A stretch of 63,655 bases of DNA, the filler included, from Folioceros fuciformis (Eukaryota): assembly GCA_049999805.1 (NCBI GenBank). It is 4 parts of 2 records of this genome, joined end to end, with 100 filler letters (N's around TTAATTAATTAA, not from the genome) between each part and the next. Parts side by side here need not be neighbours in the genome. Positions count along the whole stretch, not along the records: positions 1 to 22,833 come from JBNGIO010006264.1; 3 more parts are not named here. One strand, 5' to 3'. Below, piece by piece: positions 1 to 62,266 of this stretch. The notes below the pieces were generated by a model. It did no database searches, was not told the DNA's origin, and worked only from the letters and a program-made list of their open reading frames with translations. A program made the position numbers and the translations under genes. Within the stretch, counting starts at the first letter, position 1. Each line of letters opens with the position of its first letter.

Positions 1-3000
1 GCGTATGTACATTCGCATGTGACCCCTCTCACCAACAGCTGCCCGCAGCTCCTGCACACTTACCCCCTCAAACCGTTGAGGCAGAACGATCTTTGCGACC
101 ACAAGAGCACTTTCCTGCGTGGAATCAAACTCGGCATGTTAACTACCCGACAGAAAAACTTCAAGTTGCATCTCACGATCACATCTCAGAAGGAATCTAA
201 TCATGGACCTGCCACAGAAAGTCCTCGATCTCCATCCCACACTGCAAAACAGGTAGCAACTTCGACCGTTCGATGAAGAAGCAGTGAACTGCAGAATCCG
301 TGGTGACATTACAAAGGTATGGCTTCCCAGCAAGAGTTTCGTATAGACCCAATACACTTCCGTGATAAAATGTAGTGTCGAGCAATCTCCTGTTTCCACA
401 GGCATCGCTGCTCCACTGCACAACCGGCAAGATAAGTCAGTACCATGAAAATATGATACATGGTCGTGACGGAAAAACCGCCAGGGAAAATAGGATGACC
501 AAGGACCTTAAGAATGCCGTTGGCAATAACCCAAATCCCATCTGGGTTACACTTTTCCTTGTACAAAACAGTTCCACGCAATTTCATGTATTCCTTGGCA
601 CCAGTCCGGAGAGGTTCCTGCAGGTGGGATGGGAGTGCTCCTATCAAGGGCTGTGCGCTGAGAAGATCCAAAGCAGAAGGCATTTGCACCAAAGGCGGGT
701 TTCGCAGGAGCCTCTTCAAATCAACCTGCCCGTGGAAAATCAAGGTTCAAGATTCTGTAATACTGCCCCCATACTACACAGAATAGAAAACGGAAAAGCA
801 TTACCTGCACAGAGTCATGCAAGTGCAAGATTTCTTTCTCCCCGAGAAGAGCAGCCTTCTCAAGACCTTGAACGTAGTCACTAAGATGAACCAGAATTGC
901 ATGGGTCACTTGCTTCGTCTTTATGGCTCGTAAAACCTGGATAAACAGGTGGCAGATTGCAGACGCATGAAGAGCCCACAATCAATGATGCAGCCCGTGG
1001 TGTACGTCACAATGAAACTGAACCTTCAGGCATCCACGAGGTTGGATGCACATCTTTCAGATGTTGGTTACCTGTGAGAAAGAAACCCGAATGTCTTCAA
1101 GGAATTGCTTGGCCTCCTGCCCTTCCAATTCACTTTCTCCAATGACGGTATCTGCAACCTCGCTTTCACCTGCACAGAGGCCACGATTACCAGCTCCATT
1201 TCCAGCACACTACCTCCGTCATGGCTGCTCCTAATTCAATTAGACCAGCTATATCACTTTGGGCAGGTTTTTCAGTTACCAATGAACTCGCGAAGCTGAT
1301 GCCGGGCCTGTCGATGAGCTCGAAGGAATCCTGCTGAGATGTAACAACCAAGCTCTAACCGTTCTACTAGGAAATATGAAAGCAGCTTTTGGGGCACCCA
1401 GTTGGAACTTCTCCACTGAAGATCTTTCAGAAACCGTGGGAAATGAACATGAGGATGAAGTCCCTTCCAGTCATTTAGGACATTAAGATGAGCTACGTCA
1501 TCAAGAGCCTCATCTACAGACCGCATGAGAATAATGGCAGCTGTTTGCGTTATCCTCCCATCTTCCAGCAATTTCCAATAAGCAGCTTGCACACCTGCAT
1601 TTCACAGGCACAAGAATGAAATGAGTTTTGCACACAGAAATTGCTCCACCTCCCTCCTCGTGCTGAAAATGGAATTGCTTGACAAACAACATGTCAGAAG
1701 CAATTACAGACCTACCATTCAAAAATCGTAACCTTGTGTCCTGAAGGTGCTGGTTGCGCAGGGCAAGTCCAGAAGCTGCTGACTGGTGCGGATGTAGGGG
1801 ACGACCTGCGTCAGAGACTTCCTTCAAGCAGCTTATGTAGTCCTTCACAGTTCCCCAGTCAGCTGGACCCAGATCCTCATCTTCACCGAGTTCACCATAA
1901 GCCTCCACAGCCTTGCTGTACATCTCAAACTTTGCATAGTTCAACATAAGATCCTGAACCCAGCAGGCTAAACTTCATCAGTGCATTACGCAGAAACCAA
2001 GGCTCACTTAGGTAGGTCAATAGGGACGTCGTTCAACAGAATGGGGGCAAGGTAGGCATAAAAATCACCCCACCCTTTGCTACAGAAAAGAACTGCCTAG
2101 TTCACATTAAGGGATTCCACTGACAAACCGTAATTTCTGAAGGCCTCGTCATACCCAGCAAATGAACTAGAAACTGAGTTGTAGATCCATTGATAATAAG
2201 AGACAGGAAAACCACCCCCCCTGTGAAAAACACAAACTGCTCTTCATGTGTCAGCAAAGAACTGCGAGTGGAAGAGACGAGATAACCCCAGCAATGCATA
2301 CGGTACTAACTATTCCTCTACGAAATTCTGCTAATAAATTGAAAAGTATCACTAGTCGACATGGTGAACACCTGTGCTTGCGTTGCTTTCGACACATAAG
2401 CATATTCTGACGGTCCAACTTGCTGCACAGCACAAACACTCGCCGTGAATATCCTTCTCTGTACTGGCCGTCTCAAGGTCTGACTCCATTAAGTAGATTC
2501 AACAACTTGCACAATGTCGGCTTTCAACTCTACAAGGAACAAACATTGAGCAATTGTAACTGGTTGCCGCTCAGCTATGATAGGAACTTACAGCTACAAG
2601 CAACGAGAGAGACAACGCCACTGCTCCACGAAGGCCCGACCAAACCAGAACTACAGCCTCTTTCCAATCAAGCCCATAGCCGCTGTATCGAAGACCAGGG
2701 TATAGCACCGCAACAACCAGCAGCCGTGACAGCTGTACAAATACATACAGCATAACCAAGTAACCCCAATCACGACCTGCAGACAAAATTGAACACCGTG
2801 AGAAGGTTGCTGTTGTGACGTGGATGTGAAATAGGGCTCACACGCCCATGGCTTACCAACAAGCACACAATAGCATACCATGTATACTGTCACGGCTTCG
2901 TAGTATACTCTCTGCTATGATTACGCCACTGCGATAGGTAACAACAAATCCAATTAGACTTCACGTGGGCAAACAATAGAATAGCTACATCAAGTGGGCA

Positions 3001-5129
3001 ATATTCACCATCAAAACAAGATAAAGCTGCTGAGCCTTCATACAGTTCAAGAATTCAGCACAAAGATAAGAGGCACTTGTCTTAAAACCTCAACGACATA
3101 GAACACATGCAACTGCAATCCGCTTCCTGTTGATCGCGGCTGTAAAGAGAAGTGTCCTGCACGCATGGTATCAAACCTGAGAATGAAGATAAGTGTGTTT
3201 GCTATGTAAGCAATCATCTCCCTGCCACATGCTCAGGAACACAATTCCAAAGAGCAGCATCAGTAGTTGACACCGAAAGATTCCAACAAGCAACAAATAG
3301 CATAACACGACAAAGAGATCGGTGCAACAAAAAATAACCAGAAATGGTGCATGCTCCTCTCACTCTCCCCAGTGAAAGCCGTCTTTGCAAATGCAGCAAA
3401 GAATCTGATAATATTTTGACAAGTTACAGGTCCCACATTTAATTCTCAAGCATTTATTCAAGGACAAGTGCAGGTCCTCATGATGACTGGATGGTGAACG
3501 TACATGCCAACTGTCATCACAGTTAAGACACCAGAAACTTGAGCCTCATCTTCTGCCTGTTCAAGTTCAAATGTGTGGCTCAGAAATGCTGCCAAATCAA
3601 GAAACCTTGCTGCCCAAAAAACTGTCTAGCTCTTGCCAATCGACGACCTTACCACAAAGAATGCCATATAACTGGCTGTGAATGTGAGGGTGATCTCAAT
3701 CACTGTATCATTGAATACAGTCCCGAGCCAGATGATGGATACCAGCCCAAAGGCAACACCCAGGGCAACTCTGCAAAACACCACAGTTCTCTCAGACCTG
3801 GTGTTTGACAACTAGTGTGCACGCCGAAGTGAGGAATTTCACCCAACAAGAATATTTTAATGAAGAAATTCAAACGATAAAATTTCTCCATCGTTCTTGG
3901 GGTCCGGAAAATACATACGCTCCCAAGGAGACCTGACTTAAGAACAAGATTATTTGTTTCGCGTCGAATCTCTGGCCCAGCGTCATTCTCAGAAATAGAC
4001 GATAAACCACGATAGCCACTCTGTTCTACAAGAACACCAACCACAGTAATGAGACGTAAGGTTCTTCATCGCAACCTTCCTGCACCCATGTGCAGCTATA
4101 GAACAAGATAAAGCTGCAATACCCACCCATCGTTCATTAACGCCTCTCCTTCGATGATGGTGCTGAGCTTCTTGCTGGCCCCAAGCTCTTTAAGCAGAGC
4201 GACGACTGCCACTGGGTCGGTCGCACCAAGTAAACCTCCCAGCAAGAGACAAGTGCTCCGATTCCAGCCATACGGAAACAAATACTGATACTCAAAGAAA
4301 CACAGGAAACCAGAACAAGAAAAAATTTCAGAAGAAGCAACCACAATTTCTCCACCCACACTGGCGGGCACAAAAGCTGATCGCAGTAACGCAAAAAAAC
4401 AGAACTGACACTCCCGACCAGCCTACCTGGTGGACAAATCCCAGCGAGAAAGTCGTGATCACCACTCCAGGACCCGCGAGAAGCATGATCTGCAGCATGC
4501 ATCGCTGCAGACAATGCACCCACAATGCACAATGCACCCACAATCCACATTCTTAGAATCAAAACCGTCCCAACCCACCTCCTTCCGAAACAGCTCACAA
4601 ACGCTCCTCCGCACGCACCTTAATCTGATGCACCTCCAAAGCGAAGGAGCTCTCAAACAGCAGCGCCGGCAGGAAGATGAAGAGAATCAAATTGGGGTCG
4701 ATGTTGGACCCTGCACCACCCACAAAACCTCAGAACTCCGGGACCCAGAAAACCGCTCGAATTCCAGCGCGCCCACGACCGCACTCACACATCCGAATGC
4801 TCACTCCCAAAGAGCCCAACCCGTGCGCCGTCCCGTACTCTGCAGCATCCAGCGACGCGGTGAGACCAAATTCGCCCAACACAGAGCAGCCAGCGCCCAG
4901 CCTTTCTCCCTGCAATCCAGACCGTTCACTCACCAAGCGCGCCCAGCCCGACTCCCAGCAGCAGCAGAGCGACCGTGTAGGGCACCCGGCTGCCCCGCAG
5001 AAGCTGGCGGCACAGAATTCCGAGGGCCAGGGAGAGCCCGATGAAGAGCATTGCTACCTCTGGGCCTGCGTGCTGGCCTTCCCCAGGGCTGGCCACGGGG
5101 GCGACGAGGGGAGCCTGGGAGACCTCCAT
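1..5129 (-). CDS. SOS1: Plasma-membrane Na+/H+ antiporter SOS1/NHX7, multi-exon, 3' end outside the window
   Basis: ATG at 5129. Exon peptides LCRQLLRGSRVPYTVALL, LLGATDPVAVVALLKELGASKKLSTIIEGEALMNDG, WSGLRGAVALSL, INGSTTQFL, QAAYWKLLEDGRITQTAAIILMRSVDEALD and the cNMP-like LRGTVLYKEKCNPDGIWVIANG match plant SOS1; GT-AG introns separate them. Confidence 0.95.
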
Positions 5130-6045
5130 CCCGAGCCGAGAGGGGCATCACAGGCACGCACACAAGCGGGAAGCACAGGCTACAAAATTCTCAACATCAG
5201 GAGATATTGCGCAGCAGGCTGCGATCTCTGTGCATGGCACTGTCGGTGCGAACGGGAAGGTGAGTAGGAAGGCAGCGGAATCGTAGGCAACACGAGGATC
5301 AGGAAATGCAAATGCCGTTGTATTGAGCTCCTGATAAATTTGGTTGTCGCCGCCACTTGGCGCTGTTCAACCGGAAGACAAGGTGGACATTGATGCGTCA
5401 CCGTTCGTTGGGACTCACCAGCCTCCACCATTCACAGGCGATCTGCTTCTCCTTAACGCCTTTTGTGAACATACCATCTCGTTTTCTCCTTTCTCAATTT
5501 TCGGAACATTTGTGCCATATTTGGCATCGCAATCACATAGATCCGGCCCCACTTTGCCGCCCTCCGGATCTTGATAGAGTCGGAAGTATCCGCACCCTTT
5601 TTTTGTCTTTGTCCTCAGCTTTCTGGCCTCCAACATACAAAAGAGGATCTCCGTACCATGCCACCACATAGTCCTTGTCTTCTAGTTTAAAATACCATTC
5701 CTTAATTTCATAAAATATATAAATTATTCAATACATTACTTTTTTAGGGTTTGGGATACAATATATAATTCTTGGTCTCACACATCCCAACTAAAAAATA
5801 ATTTTAGCCCTTCTTCTTGGAGGCTTTTACTTTTTGCAAACTAAAAGTAACTTTTGTACTTACAAAGTTCTTGGTCTTCCACACGTTTGCTGAAAAATAG
5901 TTTTAGCTCTTCCTTCACCAAGCTTTTGCTAGTTGCATACCCAAAGTGGCATTTGTACTTAAACAACTACCTTGGTCAGAAGTACAAGTACCTAACATTT
6001 TATATGTTTCATTTAGAACTTATTAACTTTACATAAATATTATTC

Positions 6046-6070
6046 TATATATATATATATATATATATAT
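6046..6070. repeat. (TA)n microsatellite
   Basis: About 12 TA units, directly visible. Confidence 0.95.
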
Positions 6071-6229
6071 CTTTAATCAAACTCCTGAACGTAGATATCC
6101 TACACATTAGAGATTATCTAGGCATTTTCGAAAGGAACAACTATCTGATATTGAGATTAATGAAGCAAAATTAACCTATGTTGGTATTCCAGATACTCTC
6201 TTTGCCTTAAGTGTTACTGCAGTAGAGGG

Positions 6230-6703
6230 AAATCCTTTAACCGTATTGGAGACTTACTTGAGACCCAAGGCAACTAAATGGAAACTAGCCATCAATTATG
6301 AGTATAACTCATTGATCAAAAACAATACTTGCACTCTAATTAGCTTGCCCAAAGGAAGAACCATCGTCAAGTACAAATGTATTGTTATGATTAAGTTTTA
6401 GGAGGTAGAGTTACGGATTCGCTACAAAGCAAGATTAATGGCTAAGGGATATCGTTAAAAAGAGGGAGTGGATTATCAAGGTGATAACGTCTACTTACCA
6501 GTTGTCAAATTTGTGTTAGTTAGGATGCTTCTAGCTCTATGTATTGAAGTCAACTTATAGATCTATCAACTATATGTGAGTACGACATTTCTTTGACAAC
6601 ATTTTCAAGAGGAGATCTACATGGATCTGCCTAAGGACTATAAAGATAAGGCATACCCACACAAGGTGTGTAAACTTAATCGCTCCATCTATAGACTTAC
6701 AAC
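6230..6703 (+). mobile_element. Degenerate Ty1/copia reverse-transcriptase fragment
   Basis: Translates, with stops, as KWKLAINYEYNSLIKNNTCTLISLPKGR...RYKARLMAKGY*..GVDY...IYQLYVSTTFL..EEIYMDLP...KVCKLNRSIYRL, the copia RT N-terminal motifs. Homology breaks off at about 6703. Confidence 0.85.
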
Positions 6704-7081
6704 TGTTACAGCCTTCCTATGCTTGATGAATATGATATGTAGTCCCTCAAGCTTATAATATGTATGAGATGGCTCAAACTAAGCCAAAGTAATGAAAAAC
6801 AAACGAAGTTGATTCACTCTCAATAGTTAGCACTATTTGATGAAAGACGTGATCTCATCACACCTACCCCGAGATAACTCAAATTAAGTGGGAGTGATGA
6901 AGAACTGACCAAGTTGATTCACTCTTAGCAGTTCGCACTAATATCCTAAGAAAGACATGACTTCATCACAAATATCCTCAATCATCGCATCCCTTTTCTA
7001 TACCCGCTATTCATATAAGCACAAAGACGAGATAAATATTTTAATTAATTATTTAAGAGTAAAATAATTAACATCCCTCTT
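6704..7081 (-). mobile_element. Probable 3' LTR (~370 bp) plus polypurine tract of a minus-strand LTR element nested in the copia RT
   Basis: Termini TGTTA(6704)...TAACA(7073). Minus-strand purine tract AAGAGGGA (7074-7081) abuts the LTR. The copia RT stops exactly at 6704. Confidence 0.5.
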
Positions 7082-7195
7082 AGTTCTTGATAATTATTTT
7101 CTATTATTAAAAAAAAGATGGAAAGTCCCATCTACTCCAAAGATATGAAGGAACAACCCAAGCAATACCAAAGGCTAAAAGGTGTACTAGCACCA

Positions 7196-7410
7196 TAGAA
7201 CTTCATTCTCAAATCTACCTACTACTCCCAAAATGTCATAATGCGGAATTAAAAAGGGCTTACCTACCACCAATGCCGAAGAAACTACTTGATCTACACT
7301 TGGTGCTAGAACTTCATTCTCAAGTCTACCTACTACTTCCAAAATGTCATGATGCGGAATTAAAAAGGGCCTACCTACCACCAATACCAAAGAAACTACT
7401 TCACCTACAA
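7196..7410. repeat. Tandem duplication, period 111 bp
   Basis: TAGAACTTCATTCTCAA...GAAACTACTT begins at 7196 and again at 7307, with a few substitutions. Confidence 0.9.
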
Positions 7411-7424
7411 TTCTTGTTGTTCTC

Positions 7425-7706
7425 AAGACCGCATTGGCCAATGCTCTTTACAAAGCAATGTTCTAAAGACCGCATTGGCCAATGTTCTTTACGAAGCAAT
7501 GTTCTAAAGACTGCATTGGCCAATGCTCTTTACAAAGCAATGTTCTAAAGACCGCATTGGCCAATGCTCTTTACAAAGCAATGTTCTAAAGACCGCATTG
7601 GCCAATGCTCTTTACGAAGCAATATTCTAAAGACTGCATTGGCCAATGCTCTTTACAAAGCAATGTTCTAAAGACTGCATTGGCCAATGCTCTTTACAAA
7701 GCAATG
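7425..7706. repeat. 41-bp minisatellite, about 7 copies, each containing the palindrome GCATTGGCCAATGC
   Basis: Unit AAGACCGCATTGGCCAATGCTCTTTACAAAGCAATGTTCTA at 7425, 7466, 7507, 7548, 7589, 7630 and 7671; head-to-tail, no spacers. Confidence 0.95.
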
Positions 7707-7778
7707 GATATGTATTGTCGAAAGAAGGCCACCATTGATGAACCTTGAAAAGAACCCTATTCTTATGACTATGATACA

Positions 7779-8022
7779 CCTTTGTGCACTCTTCGATCAA
7801 CCTTGAAAAGTCCTTGTCCATGGCCTTTGTGCACTCTTCGATCAACCTTGAAAAGTCCTTGTCCATGGCCCAATGCAAACATGCTTGTCTTGCATGGGAG
7901 AATACTTATGCACTTTGGCATTTGACCTTAGTTCTTTACCAAAGGGTTTCATCAAACTATAGGGAGAAAACTTATGCACTTTGGCACTTGACCTTAATTC
8001 TTTATCAAAGGATTTCATCAAG
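7779..8022. repeat. Two further short tandem duplications (~45 bp and ~67 bp)
   Basis: CCTTTGTGCACTCTTCGATCAACCTTGAAAAGTCCTTGTCCATGG twice; GGGAGAA..CTTATGCACTTTGGCA..GACCTTA..TTTCATCAA twice. Confidence 0.85.
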
Positions 8023-8522
8023 TTTGTGAAGGCATGCATCAAGATTTATTAGGGCATAAGATTAGGGTTGGTCTTCCCCTTTCTTACTTTTATTAGGCCA
8101 AGAATATCAATTGCTCCACAAAACGCGTTTGGCAAGCCAAGTATACAGTATCTCATTAAGTGAGTGTGAGTGAAGAATTTGCTTCGGCTTGAGTGGTGGG
8201 TAAGCCCTTTTATGTCCCTAACCACCAAGTTCTTCGGAACAGTGGTCATTTCCACCTTGTTTTCTCAATCAAGTCTCCGCCTCCTTCGAAATGGAAGGCA
8301 ATATGAAGGTCCGTGATAAAGTATTTATTTCGTTTCACATAAGTACTTTTATGCCTAAAAGGCAATACGATTAGCTCTCGTTCGTTCGCCTAAGCATATT
8401 TGGAAAAGTCGACAGACACTGCCTGCTGTCGGACAGGAGCTGAATCTGGCGCTTGCATCCGGAAGGCAGGGTTTGGCGCAACTCAAAGTTGTGAGCTGTG
8501 GTGAGCGGATCTGCGAAATAGC

Positions 8523-9040
8523 ATGGGTTACTGGGGGAAGCCAATCTGGCAGGTAGCGGCCCAGGAGGCCAAACGGAACTGGTTTGTGATGATCGGGTTT
8601 GCGATCACTGGAGCTGGGGTCTTGAAGCTGTCCCTGGCGCTCACACGTAAGGGTTGCCTTAGTCTTCGTGACATAGATTCTGAGCCCATGCATGTCATTT
8701 ACATGCGTAGGTCACAGGATTGCCTTTCAGGGATTACGCACGGCTGTTCTGAGCTGCGGGTTCAAGGGCACAGTGATTCGACTTGATTGTGTGATAGCTG
8801 AGCTGCTTGCTTGCCAGGGTCTGACGTTTGACACCTTTTTTTGCATCTGCAGCTGAGCAGGCCGAGAAGTCGCCTTTTGTGAAGCTGCACAGGTTTGATT
8901 TGTACTCTCCGATCTGATCTGCGGTCCTGGTTTTGAGGTGTCTTGTGAGCTGTAGCCGGCTTGTTTTTGCTAGTGGCTTGAGAAGGCTATACATTCAGGT
9001 AGTCTGCTCTGGTTATATTGGCAGGAAGGATCAACACTGA
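8523..9040 (+). CDS. Mitochondrial ATP synthase 6-kDa subunit (plant type), 3 exons
   Basis: Exons 8523-8646, 8853-8892 and 9025-9040 with GT-AG introns give MGYWGKPIWQVAAQEAKRNWFVMIGFAITGAGVLKLSLALTPEQAEKSPFVKLHRKDQH*, matching the family pattern KRNW.F..GFAITG....KL..GLT......S.FV..H. Confidence 0.8.
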
Positions 9041-9383
9041 AGTCTCATGGGGTAGCGAGTACGGGAGCCTCTGCTTAAGGGGCGGAGGACGGTATGCGAC
9101 GGAAGGACCATGATGTTGGCGTGACCGCAGGTCATGGGATTAGCCCTCGTGAACTGTTGAGGATGGGACGTTGGTGGTGGGGGATTTCAGAGGGGCCGAT
9201 TATTTGACGGTGGTTGTAGGGGGGCCTGTCGGCAGAACGTTTCTTTGGCGCTCAGAGATTGTCTGTCTTTTCAATGCATGTTTATTCGTAAGAAGGATTA
9301 TCCGCTCCAACAATTCGTTGACATGTTTAGGTTAGATTTAAAGTGCACAACATGATGGCATTACTTCTCGATGTCTAATAACC

Positions 9384-12300
9384 TCACTTCCTTTGCCGCA
9401 TCCTTTCAGCGTCTTCGTCCGCGTGTTCGGAATCTGCTACACCATCTCTCACCTCTGCTACATTCCCTTCAACGTCCCCGCAATTAGAATCCGCTACCGA
9501 CACCGCTAGGTTCTCAGTGCTAACGGCATCTTGTTGGTGCGAAGATCCGCCGTTTCTGGAGGTCGAGCTCTCAGGAGTGAGCGTCGAAAATTGAAGTGAT
9601 CCTCGAACTGATTGAAGAAAACTCCGGGTCGTGCTACCTGGCAGTTGTTCACTTGCTTCTATACTTTCCGAACTTGCATTTTGGAAGTGTACCTCTGATG
9701 TCTGACTTGTGGAGGCCAGTTCTTCGCCACTGACTTCTATTGCAGGCCTCTCGGTCGCCAAGGCAATATCTGAAGAATGTATGACATCACTCTTGTAGTC
9801 CTCACCTGACTCTGGCAACGCCTGGAATATGGTAGCTCGTACCTTTTCCCCTTCCGCCGCCATAGACCTCTCGGAGACAACATTTGAACCTTGAAGAATA
9901 CCTGGCTTCAGCTTCTCACCTGAGATCTGGCTCACACGACTTGGTTGTTGTTCACCTTGTTCTGCTATTGTAAACTCTCTCCCCTCTGCAACAACGCTTG
10001 GAATTTTGAAACTTATCATTCCTGTACCCACTTTGAAAGTCGGCTCAGTTGTGACTGCCCGCTCCTGGGTTTGTATAGACGCTGCAGACTTCAGCCTTTC
10101 AGCACCAGCCTGTCGAGCCTTTAAAATATCAATCAGGCTCCTGCCCTCTTCAACAACCATCAAAGATTTAGCTCGCAAAGAAGACCCTGGGGCCCTTCGC
10201 TGCAGCCATGGTTGAAACAGCCGTTCCCTACTTCCAGAGCCAGATCTGGGTGGACTCAGGCCACCAATGGTATCTGAACCTACATCCTCAACTTTCCTGA
10301 TGGAACCAGACGTGGAGATGATGGACGCAGGTCGGAATGATCTCCTGCTGGTGGACTTGACTACCTCAGTGTGGCCTAACTCAATCAAGGACGACGACCT
10401 TAAATGATGAATATCTTCTTCATATAATGAGGATGGAGATATTTGGCTAGGTAAAGCAACCACATCATTGCCACCTTCCTCCATGCCAATTTTATCCGTG
10501 CCTGCAATATCCTCTTCACCTTTTTGCTCCTGCGAGATGCTTGACGCCTTTAGATTCGAAGCATCAGCCGTTGTGGTCACAAGCTTTCGTCTGACTACTG
10601 GAGTTGGAATAGGGCGTGCTGCATAGTACTTCTTCAGTTGCTGGTGCGAGATGTCATGTTCCAAAAGCTGTCTGTGGAAATGGCGTTGCCTCAGTTCCAG
10701 GGTACGTGTTGCCTCCTGTCGCATTTCGTCCGCAGCAAACCGCCGTGCCTGGTCCACGACAAGAGCTGTCACTATCTCTGGGGCCTCCTCGCGGTCAGGA
10801 TTGCCCTGCATGAAGCACAAGGATCCATGACGTTGCTTGGCATTGCCATCACCCGTCAGGAAGGAAATAGGAACTGAAGACAGTCAGCGAGAATCCTTAC
10901 TTCAACACAAACCAGACAACAAAACATGATCATCCTTTTCCGCCACCAAATGTGGACACCACACAATATAAGAGTGACACCAATAAGAGGTAGCACCGTG
11001 GTCAAAAGAAACTCAGTCGCACCAATTGCATAGCGGCTTGCAGCCAGTGCCGCACAAACTGTTTCGTTGGCTTCTGACTGTCAGACCACCGTCATCGATT
11101 TCAATCACGAGCCGGCTGTTGCAAAGAAACAGCAATATAGAGAAAGTATGCTGCAGTCAGAGCACTTACTGTCACATGATAGCAACTGACTGGAAAGAGG
11201 ATTCCACTGCTTCCCACATCAGTCATATTTGGGTACAAAAGAGTGGATCGCTTGACACGATACACTTTCTGAATCCAGATGGAGATGTTGACAGTCGCTC
11301 CAAAATAAGGTTCTACATCCATTCTAAATTCAAAGTCATTCTGGACAAATTTGCCTTTAATCAGAGCATCGGGCCCCCAAGTCTTCACAGCCGCAGGATC
11401 AGCACGATAGAATAAGGGCAATGACTCGTAACTTCCCCCCGGGAATCTGGTCATATCAATGACACCACGCTGCACATTTGGATAGAGACAAGGACCCTCT
11501 TCCACTAGTTTCCTGTACAGCACAAAAAGAATTTCTTTGAGAGCCATTCGCACAGCGGCTGCTTCTCAAGTACAGTTTCTGCCTTAACTTACTCTACAGC
11601 AAACCACTCCTCTCCCTTATTCACTTGACAAGAACTTGATCCTACTTTTAGAGACGAATTAAAGCAAAAAAGGTGACAAAACCTCTACTTCAACTCTAAC
11701 CTGCATGGGAACATGTAAAAGACAATATTTAACTTCAGCGACTTTTCTCCAAACATACTCGAGAGGGAGCTCTGGACAAGAAGCAAGGGAGGAATCCGCC
11801 AATCTGTATTTATATGTCGTTAATCCATGCAGGTTGCCAATGCCTACGTGTTGTAGAGTAACATGACGGAGCCAGGACTCTAACCACATCGTCAGACTCT
11901 GGCCAGCCTGCAAATTACCAAAAAGAGACCCATGGGATGACTCTACATTCACCGTGCCGTAGTCCCAATCAATGCTACTAGCATTCATTGGACTAGTCAG
12001 CATTGAAGATGAAGGTGCTCCTGGCAATGTGGACTGCTGAGTTATCCAGTATAGCTTTGAAATGTTCCTTGATCCTGTATTGATCCCGGAGTACGAATTA
12101 AAAGTACCAAAGTCTGATGCAGGCCTATTAATATCCTTCATGTCATAGATCTGTGCCACCCATGTACTGCGATTAGATCCTACGGTAGCCGCATAGTTGG
12201 TCCTGTACAACAGCCACGGGTCATCATATCCATAAAGTATGTCCCCCACTGTTCTAGTCATGAACATCCCAGCATTCCTATGCAGATCCCTGTACTGGAA

Positions 12301-14254
12301 CTCAAGGTTTCCCAGGCCCTGAGCCAAGTAATCCAAGTACTCGATAACGGCCACTGACATTTCGTCAGAAAACCCAGGGAGCGCCACCAATGTTCCTGGA
12401 ACAGGGTTGATAAGTTCTATAACATCCTCCACTGGTGCGTGGATCAAACCATACGTTGAAGAAAAAAAGAATAAAAATGCTTGACCGTAGCTCATGAACA
12501 TTGAGTTCCCCTTTACCCAAGTCTTCGACCAGGAACAGAATTCAGGAGCATACGCGGTACTGTAGAAACCACCAACTGTAATGATCGACGCCCCCTTCAG
12601 AGGACTACAATCGGCAAACTGTTGGAGTGCCATCTTTCTGGCGTCTGGACCAGCGGATACCATCTTCTGATTCACAAAGTATGCTGCCAGTAGAAAAGTA
12701 CACAGCATTTGTTACTTACTCTCCTAGATCTGAGCCCAACCAAATCACCCACGTCTATGACAGCTCTAGACTTGGTTGGTAGGCAACTTTGGAAATGACC
12801 TGAATAGACCATAATGAGACAGAGTCAGCACCCTGAGATTCAACAATGTATCTAGTGAGGATCTCAGGGATGAACTGCCGCAAAACCTTTAGTTCATCAT
12901 AGTCATAGTAGGCAAGCATCTGCATGTACATCTCATTCAATATTGTCACCTTGTCGCTCAGTAAACAAGGGTTGCAGGAGTACTCAGGAGCAAATCTGCC
13001 AAAAGTTGCCGAGGATTTGTAAGCTACATCGTCAACAAACTGGACGTCCAGAGTCTTCACATATTGCTGCATAGTATACGGACCAAGCTAACACAAAACA
13101 TGAGATGGAAAATAGGCAAGTCAGATATGCGGCATTTGCTCTTCATTGCATTACGCTATGCCTGATTTAAACGAGAAGAGAGCCAGCAACACATTCAGAT
13201 TATGGCCAAATAAACTCACCATGTTGAAAACGGGATTGCCAGTGAACGGTGCATTGGTGGCCATAACCACATTAAAGAAGTACCAACTCTTGTAGGAGCC
13301 ATCCACAACCTCAAAATCAGAAGTGTGAAAGCCTCTTGTCGTATTCCTTATGACAAGCCTCTGTGAGTGGAAGATGGATAACAGTGGTGAAGATGGAAGC
13401 TGATGTAGTAAGTGTTTCCCAAGTAATAACCCCACCATCCTCTCCAAGTTTGAACCTTTGCATACAGAACTTGCTATCAGGATATCTATTCTGATGTCAG
13501 CTGCCGCCTGGCTGTGGCACAGTAGACCAAAGCAGCAATGCTTCCAGTAGGCTTGGCTGAACCGGATACCAAGAAAACAGACTGGACTGGTCTAGATGAA
13601 GCAGCATGTAGCAGAAGCTTTCTGCAGCTAGACGAAACAAGTGCCCCAAAGCGAAAAAACCGAAATGGATAGCCGCTACGCTGTCAGACTCAGAGAGAGG
13701 AAGGGTTGCAGTTCACTCACCTTGTAAAGCGTATGCTGAATACCAAAACGGGATGCCGGCAGCGCTGCCGTCAGCATCAAAATAATGCCAGATAAAAAAC
13801 ACAACGTTGCGATTCTCATTCGACCTTGCCCTTCTGCCAGGTAACTGAGCTCACCCTCATTAGAATGTGCTGCAGAGAGATTCTCAGCCAATTCTGTCTT
13901 CTTCTCAGCAGAACCCGGAGACACGGGTTTTGACCCCTCTCCACCTCCCCTGCTTTCGGGAGTGTCTCCACCAATGGACAACAACCCTGGAGGAGGTGAT
14001 GACACCTTCAATGTCCCCCTTCGGCTCCCCGACGAAGAAACTATTTCGGGTCCCAAGATCAGCCTGGGTTGGGAGGAGGTGCTCAATTCAGCAGCTCCCG
14101 GCAAGGAAACGGGAATCCCTGGATCCGCCTCAACATGTCGTCGTAGATGACTGGCTCCAGCGCCCACCAGGCTCTCCAGTCCAGAGAATGATCTACTCTG
14201 TTCCCGGGAACTGTCCAGGACAGGATTCCACCCAGCCGATACCACATGGGCCAT
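9384..14254 (-). CDS. CD36 / scavenger receptor class B (SR-B/LIMP-2) family membrane protein, multi-exon
   Basis: N-terminal TM (RIATLCFLSGIILMLTAALP). CD36 motifs in the correct order: WYFFNV..NPVFNM|LGPYTMQQ, DKVTILN, TRTVGDILYGYDDPWL, INTGSRNISK, HGSLF...WLRHVTL...LHGLTTYKYRL, GVIDMTR..SLPLFYRADP, MDVEPYFGAT...IQ, LFPV. C-terminal TM FLLTTVLPLIGVTLILCGVHIWW-RKR, then a ~470-aa low-complexity last exon. Start codon and linkage of the last exon are inferred. Confidence 0.8.
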
Positions 14255-14507
14255 GCCACAGGACAGCAGATGTGAATTCTGGGTAACGCAGAATGAAGCA
14301 TTCAGCAACCGGCCATCTTCACGATCCGCGTAACCTAACCGCTTCCGTTGGAATAAAGCCGGTTTTGTCGATTGTTCCTGTGCGTAGAAGAGAAGGTTTA
14401 GAGTGGGCGCTGGGAAGACCTATGGCTGGAAGCATGCTCTCGTGCGATGGGCTTGGAGGAGATTGATTAGACGTGAATTGGCTGAGAGTGGAGCCCGAGA
14501 GTCTGTC

Positions 14508-15862
14508 ATGGACGAAGCTCAATTCATGCGGCTCCTGGGTCTATTCCCCATGGTCAGAACGCGGGATTACTGTGTGAGTCTCAGCCTCGCCTCCTCCTTA
14601 CGGCAGCTTGTTTTCACTGTCATGCTTGGTGCATAAGATTCTCCTGTCCAGCTGGCTTCTGCAGAGCTCGAATTCTGTTTTTTGGGGTGTTTGGTGTTTG
14701 TGTCTCGGAGGAATCATGGTTGTGAATCTGTCAAGTCATCGGTCAGTATCTGCAGCTTTGGGTTGCAACATGCTCGTTGACGGAAAGCGGGATCGGCATT
14801 TGTCAATTGATCGTCTGGAACGCGGGCAGTTGGCCGAAGTTGCTGTGGTTTATTAAGGGGCTGGTCAGCTCTTCAACCTCAGGGGTTTTGTCTTCCGTTC
14901 ATATCGGTCGGGGCGGTTGCGGAGAAATTGACCTTCAGCATAAGTGGATCGATTTTGTGAGACATGCGTATTCACATTTTGTGGAGGAGAGTTGTGTGTA
15001 TAGGCAGGAATCAGAGTGGTTGTGTGGTTCGAGTCTATTGTGATCTCTGGCTCTGGTGTTCTGGGATATTGTAGGCCAATGAGGTGGCAAGCAATGCCTC
15101 CTCGATGCTTCCAGATTTTGAGCCACTTGGCGAGTCCTTGAACACTCTACAGGCAAGTCTGGTTTGTTATGTGCGTTGTTGGGGGCCTGTGCTGGGAGAT
15201 CGATACGTCAACAAGTGAAGAGGTATGATCTTGCGTGGTAAGGTTTGGTGGAAAATGATGATAGCAGATAACAGAGGAGCGTGCAGTAGGAGATGGGGAT
15301 AAGGACACGAGTTCTGCTGTTGAACCCATGCAGAAGCTGACTGCCAAGCAGTCTCAGAACACGCCAGGTTCTTCAACTCAGCCTTCAGCAGCTGGCGGCG
15401 GGGTGTTGTCGGTGACTCATGCGATTTCATTCCAGTGCCACGAGCGTATCATAACCTGAAAACGTCTTTGGTGCAGTGTCCTTTTGGGAGCTAATGCAGC
15501 AGCAAGTTGAGGCTAAGGTACAACACGTTCTAGTAAGATAAGGATTTCTCACAACTCGGCATGGCTAGGCTCTGCAACATGTTCCTCAAAGCTGATTTTC
15601 CAAATTGTTCTGTGCAGTTTGGCCAGGCTGAAGCAGAACGCTTCTGTGACGCTTTCAGGGCACAGCATAACGAGTTGGTATACATTTTCATCCCCCATCT
15701 TTGGCAAACCTGATGTCCTTCTTATTCCTGCTATATCTGTACAGGTATTGAGGACCTCAACTCTAACAGACTGTCTGAATTCATGCATTTGTGCAGGTGA
15801 ATGACCTGCTGTCTTTGGACTCCATTGAACGAATTGCGAAGAATCTCTGGCCTAATGCGTGA
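14508..15862 (+). CDS. Small conserved plant protein of unknown function, multi-exon
   Basis: MDEAQFMRLLGLFPMVRTRDYC | ... SFWELMQQQVEAK | FGQAEAERFCDAFRAQHNEL | VNDLLSLDSIERIAKNLWPNA*. Resembles a plant family with LL.LFPVVRSRDY...FW.KL...EAERFC.AF...H. One probable GC-AG donor (CAG|GCAAGT, ~15153). Confidence 0.7.
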
Positions 15863-16287: not shown

Positions 16288-18825
16288 ATGGCAGCTCTCG
16301 TCTCTGGGTCCTCTGTGCTGCCGGGCTGCTGCCAACCTATTCCGTGGCGATGCCTTCGACTGCTAGGTCTAAGGCGATGCAGGACACCTTTCACTCGGAG
16401 AGGTGCACTCGCTGGAGCCCTCGGTACCAAAAAAGGAAGAGGAGCGCAGGAAGTGGAAAGGCTGTGGCACAAATATTTTTCGGACCCTTCAGCATGGTGG
16501 GACAACCGACTGAGCAAGGTGAGCCTAATTGTGTGAGCTTCCTTCGCCATATGCGTGTCTGGCATGTGGAAGCAGCTGTGTTGATAATGACGTGTTGAGC
16601 AGCCAAATCAAAAGCATGCCGACTTCTGCCACAAGAAGACCCAGCAGCGCCTCTGGCTCAACGACAAGCACAAGCCACTTTGGGTTGATTCCCAGCTTGA
16701 TGATGTCCACGGCAAGCAGGGGATTGGGCTGGTTGAGCTCAAAGGGTGCATGCGGTAATTCCTCTTCTTGGAAGGGATAAGTTGAGGAGCATGCATACAA
16801 GGGCTTGGTTGCCAGTTTGTATCTGCAGAAATATGTTTTCCCGCGGGACTGAGAGGTTGCTGATTGTTGGTTCACAGTGGCTCTGAAGATGTGCTGGAAG
16901 TACATGCTCTGTGCAAGGATGGCCGGTTGGACAAGGCACTGGAATTCTTGCTTTCCATGGATGAGAAGGGCAGGGTTCCATCCGTGCAGCTGTATGTTGA
17001 TCTCTTGCAAGCCTGCGAAGACAGGCAGGGGTTGGCTGAGGCCAAGATGGTGCATTCTCATCTTGCCAAACATGGGCTAGAGTTGAACAAGTACCTCGGA
17101 GAGCGTGTGATTACCACCCTTATCAAGTGCGGGGGCCTTCAATGTGCACTCCAGGTGTTTCAACGGTTTCCGCATCGAAGTGCTTTCTGCTGGACGTCAG
17201 TTATCTCAGGATACAGTGAGGCAGGTGACGGACAGGAGGCTCTAAGACTGTACCAACAGATGCAAGCAGAAGGTGTGCAGCCGAGCAAGTACACTTTCCT
17301 CAGCTTGATCAATGCTTGTACCAGAGTAGCAGACCAGGAGCAGGGCAAGCGAATCCATTCAGAGGTTGAGAAGCATCGATGCCAGTTTGATCCGTATGTG
17401 GGTGCAGCTCTTGTAAACATGTATGCCCATTGTGGGAGCGTTGCAGATGCACGTCATGTCTTTGATGCACTGCCGAATCGAGACCTGGTCCTGTGGAACA
17501 CCATGATTGGTGCATATGCTCAGATGAACGAAGCAGAGAGAGCTTTCGAACTTCAAGCACAGATGCAAGAAGCAGGCATCAAAGGAGACTTGTGGACCCT
17601 TGTGAGCCTTCTCAAAGCTTGTACCACACTTGCAGACGTCGAGGAGAGCACGTTCGTGGATGGGAGGCGTATCAAATTAAAGTCACTGGAAAAGGGGAAG
17701 GCACTACATGATGGAGCTCTTCAACAGGGCTATGGCGCAGATGTGTTTGTAGGCAACAGCCTTGTCCGCATGTATGCCAAGTGCGGAAGCATAGCTGAGG
17801 CGCGGCAGGTTTTCGACACATTGCCCCAGCGGGATATTGTATCATGGAATGGTATGGTCGCAGGATATGCTCAGCAGGGCGAAGTAGCGCAGTGCCTGAA
17901 ACTTTACTCCCACATGCAGCAAGAAGGCCTCAGTCCCAACGAGGTGACGTTCCTGTCCATCCTTAAAGCCTGCAGCAACACTGGAGCTCTGAAGACATGC
18001 AAGCAGATCCACCACGACGTGCTGCTTCTTGGTCTCGAATCCAATCTCAGCGTGGCTACTGCTCTGATCCACACGTACTCCAAGTGCGGAAGCATGGCGG
18101 ATGCAAGGGACGTGTTCGACTCACTCCCTTGCCCCGACGTCGTGGCATGGAATGCGCTGATTGCTGGATACGCGGGTATGGGAGACACAGCTCTGTGTAT
18201 TCGCTGCTTCCAGAAGATGCAAAAAGTAGGAGTCGAGCCTACGGGAGTCACATTCCTCGTGATCCTCTCAGCATGCAGTCATGCCGGCAAGGTGGAAGCA
18301 GGCCTCCAGTACTTCGACTCTATGATTTCATCACACGGTATCGTCCCCGATGCCGGACACTACGCCGCTATAGCTGACCTAGTCGGCCGGGCAGGGCTGT
18401 TCCAGAAGGCAGAAGATCTGATCTCCAAGATGCCTCTCCCGCCAGACCTCGCCTTCTGGCTGTCTCTCCTTGCCTCCTGCCGGAAACACAACAACGTAAC
18501 CCTAGCAAGACGCTGCTTCGACTCTCTGCTGCAGCTCGATTCGAGACACGGGGCGGCGTATTCCCTGATGGCCACCACCTACGCGCAGTCCCAGATGTGG
18601 GAGAGCGCAGACGGTATAGAGGATCTACGGGAACTGGCAGGCGCCGTGAAGAAATGTGGCTGCAGTTGGATCGAGCATCATCAGCAGCTCATTGTATTCG
18701 AAGCAGGAAACGTGACTGGCCTGCGGCTCGAAGAACGGAAGCAACTGTACCACATGCTGCACAGTCTGAATTCTCAGGTGGAAGAGATCTCCAATGGAGA
18801 TTTGTGCCCTCTCAATAGCAGCTGA
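16288..18825 (+). CDS. PLS-class PPR protein (E/E+, truncated DYW) with an N-terminal OSB-type PDF motif
   Basis: Exons 16288-16518, 16603-16754 and 16878-18825 splice in frame (phase 0 and phase 2 GT-AG introns). Arg-rich transit-like N-terminus; LWHKYFSDPSAWWDNRLSK|PNQKHADFCHKKTQQRLWL...PLWV; P-L-S triplets, E1/E2 and KKCGCSWIE; stops before any HxE/CxxC. In-frame ATGs also exist at 16219 and 16270. Confidence 0.85.
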
Positions 18826-19629
18826 GGCGCTCCAGGAATGGGAGCCAGTGAAGAGAAGATGCACAGTCTGCTTTCTTAGGATGAGCAGCCGTCTCAGGAT
18901 GACGGAATGGGACCATGCACTGCCCGCAAGAACCGTCTTGGCTTGGACGAGATGGGATGGAGAAGTCCCGTATCTCCCGTTTTCCATAATGGATAAGTCT
19001 CTACGCTCCTTCGTGACGGAAATATCTCCAGGCTTCTTCCTGCCGGAGATATCTCCAGGTTCCGTCTCAGCGGAGGAAAGCCACAGGACAGGAGTTGAGG
19101 AGGAGCAAGAGCCTGCCGTTGCCCAAGCTCCATGCTGGATGAAAGGGCTGGACAATGGAGACGTCTCCTAGCTCCATCTCAGTCACAGAGTCGCACACCA
19201 AGGAAGGAAGCGGAACTAGACTTCGTGTCACAGTCTGCGTTCTCTAGGTAGCAAACTATCAGCAGGCTCGGCCCGTCGGGCAACGGTTTGCACTTCCCGA
19301 GAACAAGGATCTGGAGGGGATTCTGGAAGAGAGAGACGCTGGGTTTGTCGTACAGCCTGTTTTGCAGCAGGGGAAGATACCGCGCATGGTCCCACAGGAC
19401 GCGATAATCCGATGCTGTTGACCTCCGGTTTCTTCAAACGATGCATGCTGCTGCAGGCTTTCCTGGCCTTCACCCTGGGTGCCGCGGCGCAAAGGTTCAC
19501 GGCCCTGCGAGCCTAGCACTGGCCACTACTCCGGCCTTTTGAGTAGCAGTGGCCGGCTGATCTATCACTTGAGACAATCTCCCTCGGCTCCTCCGCCCTC
19601 TCTCCTGCACTGCCTGTTGCATCGAAGTT

Positions 19630-20271
19630 ATGGCAGGGCTGCGCACGCTGCGGGCGGCACTCCAGTGCCTGCTCCTGGCTGTGGCGTGGAGCTCTCTTGC
19701 GGAGGCAGGGGTCAGCTTCAAAACTCTGCCCAAGGCGTTCATTGTCTCTTCCCAGATCCAGGGCAGCGAGGGCAATCTGACTTCCGCCATCGCCAGAGCT
19801 GGGATTGATGCTCTGAGCATCACCTGGAGCCTGAACAGCTCCTTCTCCGGACAGGACCAGAGCTACCGCACCCTGAGTGCTAGGCTCTGCTTCGCGCCGA
19901 AGAGCCAGCTCAACCGCAAGTGGAGGAAGGGATTCGACGATCTGGACAAGGACAAGACCTGCTACCAAAAGATCGAGGATGTGCCGTACTCTGCTCCAGG
20001 AGGCTCGATTCTGTGGAATGTTGCTAAGAACGTGCCCAAGGCCACCTATTTCTTGCGCATCTACTCCTTAGACGCCGATGGTAATGAGCTTGCCTTCGGC
20101 CAAACTACTGACAAGAACAAGACCATCAACCTGTTTCAGGTCCGTCCCATTTCAGGGCGAACCCTCTCCATCGATATCGCCGCTGCCTGTTTTTCCACAT
20201 TCTCTCTGGTGGCCCTGGCAGCTTTTTTCTTCCAGGAGCATAGGTATGCCAAGAAGAAGGGCCAGCTCTGA
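19630..20271 (+). CDS. NAR2: High-affinity nitrate transporter partner NAR2/NRT3, intronless
   Basis: Signal peptide; GVSFKTLPK, LCFAPKSQLNRKWRK..DDLDKDKTC..KI, VPKATYFLR.Y..DA....AFGQTT, ISGR..SIDIAAACFS.FS TM segment and basic tail. Confidence 0.93.
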   Translation: MAGLRTLRAALQCLLLAVAWSSLAEAGVSFKTLPKAFIVSSQIQGSEGNLTSAIARAGIDALSITWSLNSSFSGQDQSYRTLSARLCFAPKSQLNRKWRKGFDDLDKDKTCYQKIEDVPYSAPGGSILWNVAKNVPKATYFLRIYSLDADGNELAFGQTTDKNKTINLFQVRPISGRTLSIDIAAACFSTFSLVALAAFFFQEHRYAKKKGQL

Positions 20272-38400: not shown

Positions 38401-38543
38401 AGTGCGACGGACACATAAAATCCTCGCTGTACCAGACCCTCCAATGCTTCAATTTCCCCACCGACTTTTCCCAGACTGCCACCTGCCCTGCAAATCAAAG
38501 GCACCGTCAAAGCAAGTCCCGAGCGTGCACAGGTCCAGGACAT
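35466..38543 (-). CDS. PLS-DYW PPR RNA-editing factor of the DYW:KP ('DRH') type, intronless
   Basis: About 23 P/L/S motifs, E1/E2, KKPARAWIE box, CGHAEKLALAYGLL, KNLRMCNDCH and C-terminal CSCGDRH. Confidence 0.95.
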   Translation of the reverse strand: MSWTCARSGLALTVPLICRAGGSLGKVGGEIEALEGLVQRGFYVSVALFCGVLKRCVQQKDEAVGRRIHALSLETGLQSCTFLGNNIIRMYASLGRLHEAFQVFTGLAAPNAFSWSIIILAQAKLGEPAQIIKLYHQMRQVTVNPTSYVLVAVLKACTSEADLASGKQVHADILESEVEPNLFVCNCLVDMYAKCGSLKDARRVFDGVAKRDVVSWNAMIAGYAQNGLGQEALTLYAEMVEEGIVSANHVTFGCLIKACASLGDVHRGKQLHLEIHSRGMESDVGVGSSLVDMYVKCGSLEDARKAFDSLPAKDVVTWTAMIAGYAQFGRGHEALSLYGRMQQEGVTPANHVTFVCLLNACASIKAIDAGKELHSKVQERGLEADVVVGNSLVDMYAKCGSLEDARRVFEHLPTKDSVTWNAMVAGYTDQGHGQEALTVYGRMKQLGVPLIEPVTFVCLLKACSSVGAVREGKELHDQIRERGLETDLVVANCLVDMYVKCGSLEDARRVFDILPTRNVITWTSMIAGYAQQGLGQEALNVYARMQEENITPANLVTFACLLKACSSTGDLRQGKELHLQIQERGLEADLVVGNCLVDMYAKCGSMEDASRVFERLPRKDAVTWTAMIAGYAEEGLGQDALALYARMQEEGIRPADRAMCVCLLKSCASVGALHHGKELHLHIRSAGLESDEVVGISLLDMYAKCGSLGDARIVFDRLPTRNVVAWTAFINGFAQHNQGRMGLLCFEEMLQYGVEPNEATFLCVLAACSREGLVHEGRHYFKLMVESHGINPSVCHHNCMVDLLGRAGHLQEAETMLQTMPFKTNYEGWMSLLNACKSHGDVERGRRSFDLLTRLDPQNAAPYVFMASMYTNVHMWSDVRRIESLRRLAGACKKPARAWIEVNSKVHTFDVGQERDDVSSKLKSVNFQLEEEAGHYSSPELLQALSDRAKGDALCGHAEKLALAYGLLNTPDGMALLVTKNLRMCNDCHNGTKAMSRIEKREIIVRDTHRVHRFVDGTCSCGDRH

Positions 38544-38841
38544 GTTCCTTCCTACAGCCTCGACGTGCTAAGGGCCCGCCCCTGTGCACCCGGCCTGTCG
38601 TCGCAGAGGTGGGATTTGATTTGCGTGAGGCCCATTTCCTGCAAACGCCGAAATCAGTACAAACATTTATATCTCAGCTAAACCCAGAAACCATACAAGG
38701 GAGACTCGGGAAAGCCGACCTCCTTTGGTGTTCGCGTGGATGTATTTGTCCTCCTCGATGTATTTTACGAGACAACATATGTTCGATTATCTCATATAAA
38801 ATCGTTACAATTCACGTGTGATGATATCGGGATTCCATATT

Positions 38842-41669: not shown

Positions 41670-42474
41670 TTTTCATAACAGCAAGACACTATATTAAAGA
41701 CAACAAGACTTCTTACGACGAAAGCTCCAAATGCCTTGAAAAATGGAAGCTCCGAACCTTGAGTGAAGGGTGGTGAGAGTAGTGATGTAGCCATAGCCAA
41801 GTGGGTATGGACGGATAGCTCAAGCAGGTCATGGGTACTTACTCCTTGCCAGGATCACATGAGTTGGGGTCAAATGGTAGAATCTCATCTAGACCTTGGG
41901 AGCGCAACAAGACTAGGTTGAAGGCCTTGGCAATCCTAGCTGGAAAACTATAGTATTATATGTGAATGTAATAATAAAGATCTAAAAACCCCTAATAAAA
42001 CTTAATTTTATTCTGGATTTAGATAATATGAATACATTTTATAATATAAGTTATACAACTATAGATGAACTAAAATATGCTAGATATGGAATATTCATAA
42101 TTTGTGAAAGATTAAAATACATTTCTTGGTTCTTACAAGAATATAAGTGTATCAGAATCGCCAATGGGAAACAAGGACGAATCATATGGAACAACAAATG
42201 CGAATAAGAAGCGGAAAACTAGTGCCTTGGCCATTGTTTGTGAAACCACATGCACAAACTGCGAAAGGTCAGCAAGCCTCGAAACTTGTTGGGCAGAAAA
42301 AAGTATCAAATTTTGAAGTGTTATTGTGATATTACTCTGCGTTTTTAACATTTAAGAAAGTGATCGAAGCAACAGCCAGCTACATCACTTTCCACACTCT
42401 TTTAGTCCATCCTTCATCGTACACATTTGGCGACCATGCCTTGTACGTTTATTTAATGCGCTCTGGTGATCAAG

Positions 42475-55030: not shown

Positions 55031-55035
55031 GAACA

Positions 55036-62166: not shown

Positions 62167-62266
62167 NNNNNNNNNNNNNNNNNNNNNNNNNNNNNNNNNN
62201 NNNNNNNNNNTTAATTAATTAANNNNNNNNNNNNNNNNNNNNNNNNNNNNNNNNNNNNNNNNNNNN
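62167..62266. other. Artificial contig linker
   Basis: N44-TTAATTAATTAA-N44. Confidence 0.97.

Follow-up and report, generated by a model that had tools for sequence, protein, structure and literature searches.

A gene that, judged by its sequence, is a member of the CD36 / class B scavenger receptor (SR-B) family was found on the minus strand of a 63,655-nt stretch of DNA from Folioceros fuciformis. This whole stretch is called the window, and all positions are given along it. The gene runs from a main ATG at 14254 to the stop codon TGA at 9386–9384 (14254..9384, minus strand), and a frame scan of the window showed seven exon-sized open frames in this interval. It is probably a genuine, vertically inherited streptophyte SR-B gene with seven exons. 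What is new is a CD36 member in an unexpected lineage, an apex module conserved among streptophytes, and a real long tail.

Family membership, gene model and relatives

The initial annotation of the window had read a CD36/SR-B gene from the DNA alone, and this was upheld by Pfam analysis. The Pfam CD36 profile (PF01130, cut-off 26.5 bits) was run on each exon frame singly. Three matches were obtained, collinear along the profile: frame 12755–13087 (exon 3) with 26.1 bits at profile positions 77–145, frame 11659–12711 (exon 4) with 43.9 bits (E 1.5e-11) at positions 93–304, and frame 11101–11565 (exon 5) with 18 bits at positions 323–419. Exon 4 alone passed the cut-off; exons 3 and 5, taken singly, were below it. 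A protein-language-model look-up placed exon 4 in CD36 clusters (score 0.96, 28 of 30 hits). The profile of an alignment (A2) of the window gene with the relatives P0001–P0003 and P0005 described below, compared with PDB chains, matched seven LIMP-2 sequences (E 6e-6 to 8e-6), and the match was carried by one motif of exon 4. In phmmer searches of exons 3 and 5 singly against PDB sequences, nothing was found at E up to 1.

Sequencing contigs from four runs (X1, X2, X3, and X5) were compared with the locus. The runs carried no RNA label on record and were treated as RNA by guess; their contigs do skip GT..AG introns. X1 covered 78% of the sampled locus words, with cover absent over 12733–12939, and its contigs were identical to the window; X1 is from the window's own organism. 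X2, X3, and X5 came from three other related organisms matching the window at about 90–97%. The gene was transcribed in four related organisms at 90–100% identity.

The features of the gene, in the order of transcription, were as follows.

start at 14316, minus: upstream open reading frame (uORF) of 4 codons
14083..14301, minus: frame of an upstream ATG at 14301, 72 codons, overlapping the main ATG out of frame
13721..14254, minus: coding part of exon 1, with ATG at 14254, 147-aa Ser/Gly-rich N-terminal tail and predicted transmembrane segment 1 (TM1); 178 codons
13745..13813, minus: TM1, residues 148–170, IATLCFLSGIILMLTAALPASRF; hydropathy window maximum 2.15
13361..13455, minus: retained 95-nt piece, inside intron 1 by homology, kept by RNA contigs (acceptor 13456/13455)
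13220..13360, minus: exon 2, 47 codons (RLVIRNTT...SWYFFNV...NPVFNM); acceptor context tatccatcttccactcacag/AGG
12832..13087, minus: exon 3 (LGPYTMQQY...VTILNEMYMQML...IVESQ); model donor CTCAGG/gtgctg at 12832
11759..12683, minus: exon 4, apex insert and central CD36 domain
12270..12683, minus: streptophyte-type apex insert, about 137 codons of exon 4, to which the last ~17 codons of exon 3 are added
12214..12258, minus: motif TRTVGDILYGYDDPW, aligning to the LIMP-2 stretch THTVDELLWGYKD and carrying the A2-profile match to LIMP-2
11701..11758, minus: 58-nt piece, out of frame; RNA contigs extend exon 4 to 11701
11170..11512, minus: exon 5, C-terminal CD36 domain (KLVEEGPCLYPNVQRGVIDM...PLFYRADP...MDVEPYFG)
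10901..11077, minus: exon 6, end of the ectodomain, predicted TM2 and Cys-rich juxtamembrane stretch MFCCLVCVE
10943..11011, minus: TM2, residues 756–778; hydropathy maximum 2.38
10806..10900, minus: intron 6, 95 nt
9384..10805, minus: exon 7, 473-codon acidic Ser-rich tail and stop at 9386–9384
9022..9383, minus: 3' untranslated region (UTR); an X1 contig ends at 9022

The homology-guided exons (14254–13721, 13360–13220, 13087–12832, 12683–11759, 11512–11170, 11077–10901, and 10805–9384) all had GT..AG borders, and when joined they formed a single frame of 1,265 codons. This single frame depends on three joints, 13721/13360, 12832/12683, and 11759/11512. The long open frames of exon 4 (350 codons) and exon 7 (499 codons) are beyond chance.

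A Kyte-Doolittle scan of the homology-guided protein model showed exactly two hydrophobic segments, in agreement with the initial annotation, which had placed the CD36 motifs between two TM helices. On the model, this layout agrees with the operational SR-B definition of Boohar et al. (2023) and PrabhuDas et al. (2017), as quoted in PMC10715195; the RNA contigs, however, had no continuous frame from TM1 to TM2. The tails that it had put at about 140 and 470 aa measured 147 aa (N-terminal) and 487 aa (C-terminal, acidic, S 13%, E 10%, net charge −12) in the model. The model ectodomain was 585 aa long and contained 8 Cys residues as well as 7 N-x-S/T sequons; one further sequon lay in each tail. 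The annotated insert of roughly 140 aa before TRTVGDILYGY was also recovered: about 150 aa without Pfam profile cover, formed by the closing part of exon 3 together with the opening ~137 codons of exon 4, precede MFMTRTVGDILYGY. The Pfam scan matched no family in either tail (exons 1 and 7). Relatives of the exon 7 tail were not found in a word-indexed protein search, a search that says little on range.

Exon 4 was used as a phmmer query (E up to 0.001) on a set of 1.84 billion representative proteins, a search that failed to reach even the animal CD36s. Five hits were obtained, of which four were real and one (P0004) was a spurious repeat protein. P0001, P0002, and P0003 (52, 41, and 31% identity) were fragments of the size of an open reading frame and corresponded to the same exon. 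P0005, from the streptophyte alga Chlorokybus atmophyticus (EukProt EP00898_P006710), was an annotated protein of 789 aa that scored 156 bits on Pfam CD36 and matched the same seven LIMP-2 PDB sequences at E 5e-11 to 2e-10. Its database entry had a precomputed PF01130 label, and such plant proteins may already be flagged in public domain databases. AlphaFold2 gave pLDDT values of 32.9 for P0005 (5 sequences) and 33.0 for exon 4 (4 sequences), and these models were useless for the fold or tunnel.

Comparison of the 1,265-aa model with P0005 showed a collinear alignment (E 8e-29; residues 199–690 against 153–643; 25% identity over 523 aligned positions), gapless across the exon 3/4 joint. By BLASTP, exon 2 was collinear with the Chlorokybus protein from residue 199. 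In both proteins, the apex insert lay outside the cover of the Pfam profile. Within it, ALQQ(F/W), two Cys 24 residues apart and PE(F/Y/I)C.W were invariant among the window gene, P0001–P0003, and P0005. The gaps between the first ectodomain Cys were 3/70/24 in both the model and P0005 (C-x2-C-x69-C-x23-C), and two alternative splice choices yielded 3/75/24 and 3/25/24. For exon 3, donor 12832 alone reproduced the Chlorokybus spacing. On these sequence features, the name "streptophyte-type SR-B" is proposed for proteins having the insert with ALQQ(F/W), the Cys pair 24 apart and C-x2-C-x69-C-x23-C. Since a land-plant gene and a Chlorokybus gene share this specific apex module, the family appears to have descended along the streptophyte line; the earlier idea of an ancestral receptor kept in seed-free plants agrees with the shared insert and exact Cys spacing, which fit vertical, ancient ancestry.

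Other searches added few sequences. A word-indexed search with the A2 profile (8,000 candidates scored) returned only P0005 and a Balamuthia CD36 (E 3e-6). A word-indexed search of exon 4 against longer proteins found none, a blank that says little on range. When metagenomes were scanned with the exon 4 profile (A3), 120 pattern matches were produced, and one locus, L001, was confirmed. At 2443–3168 (plus strand), this contig carried an ordinary, insert-free gene of the CD36 family, represented by its N-terminal half, and a 611-codon multi-pass membrane frame lay beside it on the opposite strand. L001 comes from another eukaryote and was of no use as a guide to splice sites.

Transcripts, reading frame and rival explanations

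Several joints of the model were seen in the contigs. Joint 13220/13087 agreed with the model in all four runs, and donor 13220 and the exon 5 acceptor 11512 were likewise present in 4 of 4. Joint 11170/11077 agreed in X1, X2, and X3; in X5 it was offset by 2 nt (11077 to 11172, with two letters between). Exon 1 closes in phase 0 at the donor TACAAG/gtgagt, and the X1, X2, and X5 contigs ended exon 1 at 13721. The GT..AG joint of exons 6 and 7 (10901/10805), in phase 0 on both sides, was present in an X1 contig of depth 11.9, and a single X2 contig of 4,080 nt spanned the 3' UTR and exons 7, 6, 5, 4, and 3.

The remaining joints weighed against a functional gene, together with several other results. 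The intron 1 acceptor was 13456/13455 in X1, X2, X3, and X5, so that the 95-nt piece was retained. The intron 3 donor was 12950 in X1 and 12800 in X2, and an X3 contig also stopped at 12800. The intron 4 donor was 11701/11700 in all four runs, with 58 nt retained. None of the joints 13721/13360, 12832/12683, and 11759/11512 was shown by contigs of any of the four runs. The initial annotation had left the exon joins to RNA data; the joining of exons 6 and 7 was borne out in this way, and the three joints of the full frame were not. The retained 95-nt piece alters the frame, and translation of the observed mRNA from the ATG ended at a stop after 213 codons; every CD36-like exon block lay in a different frame. 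In the window's own organism, the X1 joint from 12683 to 12950 splices out 12832–12949, which codes for a conserved helix. Two upstream ATGs precede the start codon. Those at 14301 and 14316 were in the transcript of at least one relative, because the X2 contig reached 14371, and they add to an impression of tight or poor translation. Finally, exons 4–6 (7.0–9.6% differing letters) diverged from the relatives as much as the intron pieces (5.0–9.3%).

Alternative readings of the transcripts were also considered. A start at ATG 13438, in the retained piece, was rejected: X3 and X5 have a 4-nt indel at 13424, and in them this ATG is out of frame. Because 4 nt are missing there in X3 and X5, the piece is noncoding. 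Acceptor 12666 with donors 12800 or 12950 was rejected, both resulting models breaking the Cys spacing, and so was acceptor 11496 with donor 11701, which required a purine-rich acceptor. The segment past LEYV was faintly similar in the window and P0001 and may be coding; on visual inspection, however, the distance separating the profile matches of exons 4 and 5 suited the shorter exon 4. The pieces kept by the mRNAs, 13361–13455, 12800–12831, and 11701–11758 (minus strand), each begin with GT and end with AG. Two-step (nested) removal of introns 1, 3, and 4 is conceivable; equally, this may be the usual splice-site consensus.

Comparison of indels showed a difference between exons and noncoding sequence. 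Over exons 4, 5, and 6 (about 1.5 kb), there were zero gap letters relative to X2, and X3 and X5 had only a −1/+1 pair 3 nt apart. The exon 7 indels relative to X2 were 15, 1+2, +3, and +36 nt, all four events being in frame. Between exon 1 and X5 (13719–14143, 425 nt), there were no gap letters despite 10.8% differing letters. Noncoding indels were of 1, 2, 4, and 11 nt, with 6–9 gap letters in ~320 nt of intron 1, 14 in 185 nt of the 3' UTR, and the 4-nt indel in the retained piece. As indels were in frame inside the exons and not outside them, the exon frames appear to be still under selection. Differing letters relative to the relatives amounted to 8.5–9.6% in exon 4, 7.0–7.5% in exon 5, 9.6% in exon 6, and 9.3–10.8% in exon 1; exons 2–3 alone were clearly slower (2.9–3.5%). 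The tail (10.6–13.6%) diverged at least as much as the intron 3 and 3' UTR pieces (9.2–9.3%) and well above intron 1. The earlier suggestion that the protein has its own signalling tail found no backing in a tail with no known domain, no detectable relative and this degree of divergence between close relatives.

These results could be explained by a transcribed gene in decay (a unitary pseudogene), in which the splice sites of the genus have drifted, the mRNA is untranslatable into a CD36-type protein and the open frames are leftovers. Introns 1 and 4 were joined out of frame in each of the four organisms, and at intron 3 two differing out-of-frame joints occurred, the donor varying between X1 and X2; such splicing would be expected of a decaying gene, as would the uORFs and the divergence of exons 4–6 and both tails at about the rate of intron pieces. 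However, the shared joints would predate the split of the four organisms (7–10% divergence), yet the 350- and 499-codon frames have remained open, the canonical GT and AG sites of the productive joints are intact, exons 4–6 have no net frameshift in three comparisons and all exon 7 indels are multiples of three. Decay is therefore held to be unlikely, though it carries real weight, and a fast-evolving, frame-constrained coding gene is favoured over it as the probable reading. The main transcripts being out of frame, the productive mRNA would be rare, or limited to unsampled cells or conditions; since contigs drop rare variants, a minor productive form may exist. Conserved exon frames against out-of-frame mRNA in four organisms are a puzzle, that of a splicing-gated or a dying gene.

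The two other explanations concern the origin of the parts. The C-terminal tail could be a separate gene, the gene as first annotated then being a model fusion. The tail has no CD36 homology and no found relatives, and in X1 the exon 7 contig had a depth of 67.4 against 10.8 for exons 1–5, 6 times as much, contig depth being a poor measure. The survey of Boohar et al. (2023; PMC10715195) treats very long cytoplasmic regions of SR-Bs as likely gene-model fusions and found such fusions for some long-tailed gene models. The phase-0 GT..AG joint in X1 and the 4,080-nt X2 contig speak against this: the RNA contigs connect the tail exon with the TM2 exon, so there is no gene fusion, the last exon belongs to the gene as first annotated, and a separate tail gene is very improbable. 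Contaminant DNA, or a gene recently acquired by horizontal transfer (the donor being an animal, an amoeba or another protist), would suit a family best known from animals and amoebae. Against it, plant genes flank the gene on the same contig, and the gene is split into seven exons by short GT..AG introns, is transcribed in the four related organisms and has as its closest full-length relative a streptophyte alga protein with the same insert; such an origin is scarcely credible. Elsewhere the window has the usual content of plant nuclear DNA, with PPR/DYW, NAR2, LRR-kinase and CDC48 genes and copia-type elements, which places the CD36-type gene in a land plant. A seed-free plant would fit both the PPR/DYW content and the shortness of the introns.

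Predicted protein and neighbouring genes

CD36-family ectodomains are asymmetric beta barrels; sterols and fatty acids move through an intramolecular tunnel between an apex-held ligand and the membrane. We infer the fold, tunnel, lipid function, location and topology of the present protein as follows. The homology-spliced mRNA would give a 1,265-aa two-pass membrane glycoprotein with a cytoplasmic 147-aa N-terminal tail, TM1, a 585-aa luminal or extracellular CD36 domain, TM2 with its Cys cluster and the 487-aa tail, the last being acidic, Ser-rich and probably disordered. By analogy with LIMP-2, SR-BI, and CD36, sterols or other lipids would be passed between a bound ligand and the membrane via the domain tunnel, and the enlarged apex would set the ligand. 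The protein may act at the surface of wall-less cells, or at the endosomal/vacuolar membrane as LIMP-2 does. In the sampled tissues, the main transcripts use intron-internal sites at three introns and are out of frame.

A far-reaching version of this scheme, which we consider rather improbable, is that the gene is a relic SR-B in few streptophyte lineages, whose protein is made only if splicing of the three introns uses the outer, productive sites, for example in wall-less motile gametes, the out-of-frame mRNA being otherwise idle. On this view, the intron-like rate of the ectodomain with a kept frame would be due to diversifying selection acting on a surface protein, either of gametes or at an interface with symbionts or pathogens, taking up or sensing sterols and lipids via the CD36 tunnel. 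The roles in sperm or symbiosis raised by the initial annotation are speculation. Retention of intron 6 would end the frame 14 codons past exon 6 and give an 806-aa short-tailed form; the terminus of the X1 exon 7 contig exactly at 10805 is a weak hint of such a form and fits an assembly-graph branch as well.

Neighbouring genes were found on both sides of the CD36-type gene. At 14387–14574 (plus strand) lies the first exon of a divergent neighbour, with an X1 contig of depth 130 and a frame with MDEAQFMRLLGLFPMVRTRDY. Because the X2 contig of the CD36-type gene reached 14371, the start of this neighbour is about 20–100 nt from the 5' end of the CD36-type gene, and the two genes probably share a bidirectional promoter. 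On the other side, a plus-strand gene was seen at 8853–9108, with a GT..AG intron at 8890–9021 and an exon from 9022 to about 9108. At 9022 this exon meets, or overlaps with, the end of the CD36-type transcript's 3' UTR, and its depth in X3 was very high (thousands). The next exon of this gene was searched for in the window and was not found.

The other genes of the window were as follows.

16864–18825, plus, and 35466–38567, minus: two long intronless PPR genes; the second carries an E domain and a DYW deaminase domain, its end reading ...CSCGDRH in place of DYW
19573–20271, plus: single-frame NAR2 gene (high-affinity nitrate transporter accessory protein), 151 bits
32568–34856, plus: multi-exon CDC48-type AAA ATPase
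42457–45554, plus: LRR receptor-like kinase in two long frames (LRRNT_2 and LRRs; kinase), overlapping at 44217–44307
54621–63220: copia-type retroelement pieces (gag, aspartyl protease); frames 54621–55877, 61696–62214, and 62223–62702 contain N runs

Endings like CSCGDRH are characteristic of those DYW variants in seed-free plants that can carry out U-to-C editing as well.

Comparison with known CD36-family proteins

Boohar et al. (2023) searched 165 eukaryote proteomes with PF01130 and reported SR-Bs in seven chlorophyte taxa and none from streptophytes (PMC10715195). They describe the SR-B family as absent from clades without phagocytosis, and report lineage-specific helical apex expansions in non-animal SR-Bs, with nearly all length variation at the membrane-distal apex (PMC10715195). 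None of the four real phmmer relatives was present in NCBI or UniRef, which fits, without proving, absence from annotated angiosperm proteomes; both results accord with the initial view that the family is not an angiosperm feature. Full-text literature searches found no paper describing a plant CD36. The present gene would mean that at least one walled, non-phagocytic land plant kept the CD36 family and that the inferred losses move later. Plant biology would gain a candidate for an animal-type sterol or lipid transfer route.

LIMP-2/SCARB2 (PDB 4F7B, 4Q4B, 4Q4F, 4TVZ, 4TW0, and 5UPH), CD36, and SR-BI have the Pfam CD36 domain in common with the window gene, as well as the predicted TM-ectodomain-TM layout and sequons in the ectodomain. 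TRTV..ILYGY.DP of the window gene aligns to THTVDELLWGYKD of LIMP-2. CD36 is palmitoylated at Cys sites next to TM2, and the window gene likewise has Cys beside TM2. The LIMP-2 PDB chains are of 391–423 aa, whereas the ectodomain here is of about 585 aa, the difference being the ~150-aa apex insert. The tails of animal CD36-family proteins range from a few to about 45 aa; those of the window gene, at 147 and 487 aa, are longer than in LIMP-2, CD36, and SR-BI, and its Cys pattern also differs.

The Chlorokybus protein shares the apex insert with ALQQ(F/W)A(D/E)C and PE(F/Y)C.W and the Cys spacing 3/70/24. It too has an N-terminal tail, of about 95 aa, but its C-terminal tail is short (about 60 aa against 487 aa here). 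The non-metazoan SR-Bs of Dictyostelium (LmpA), oomycetes, ciliates, and chlorophytes, likened here by their description in PMC10715195, have TM-CD36-TM and extra apex sequence in common with the window gene. The long-tailed SR-Bs in that survey are suspected fusions, whereas the long tail of the window gene is joined to it by a spliced transcript.

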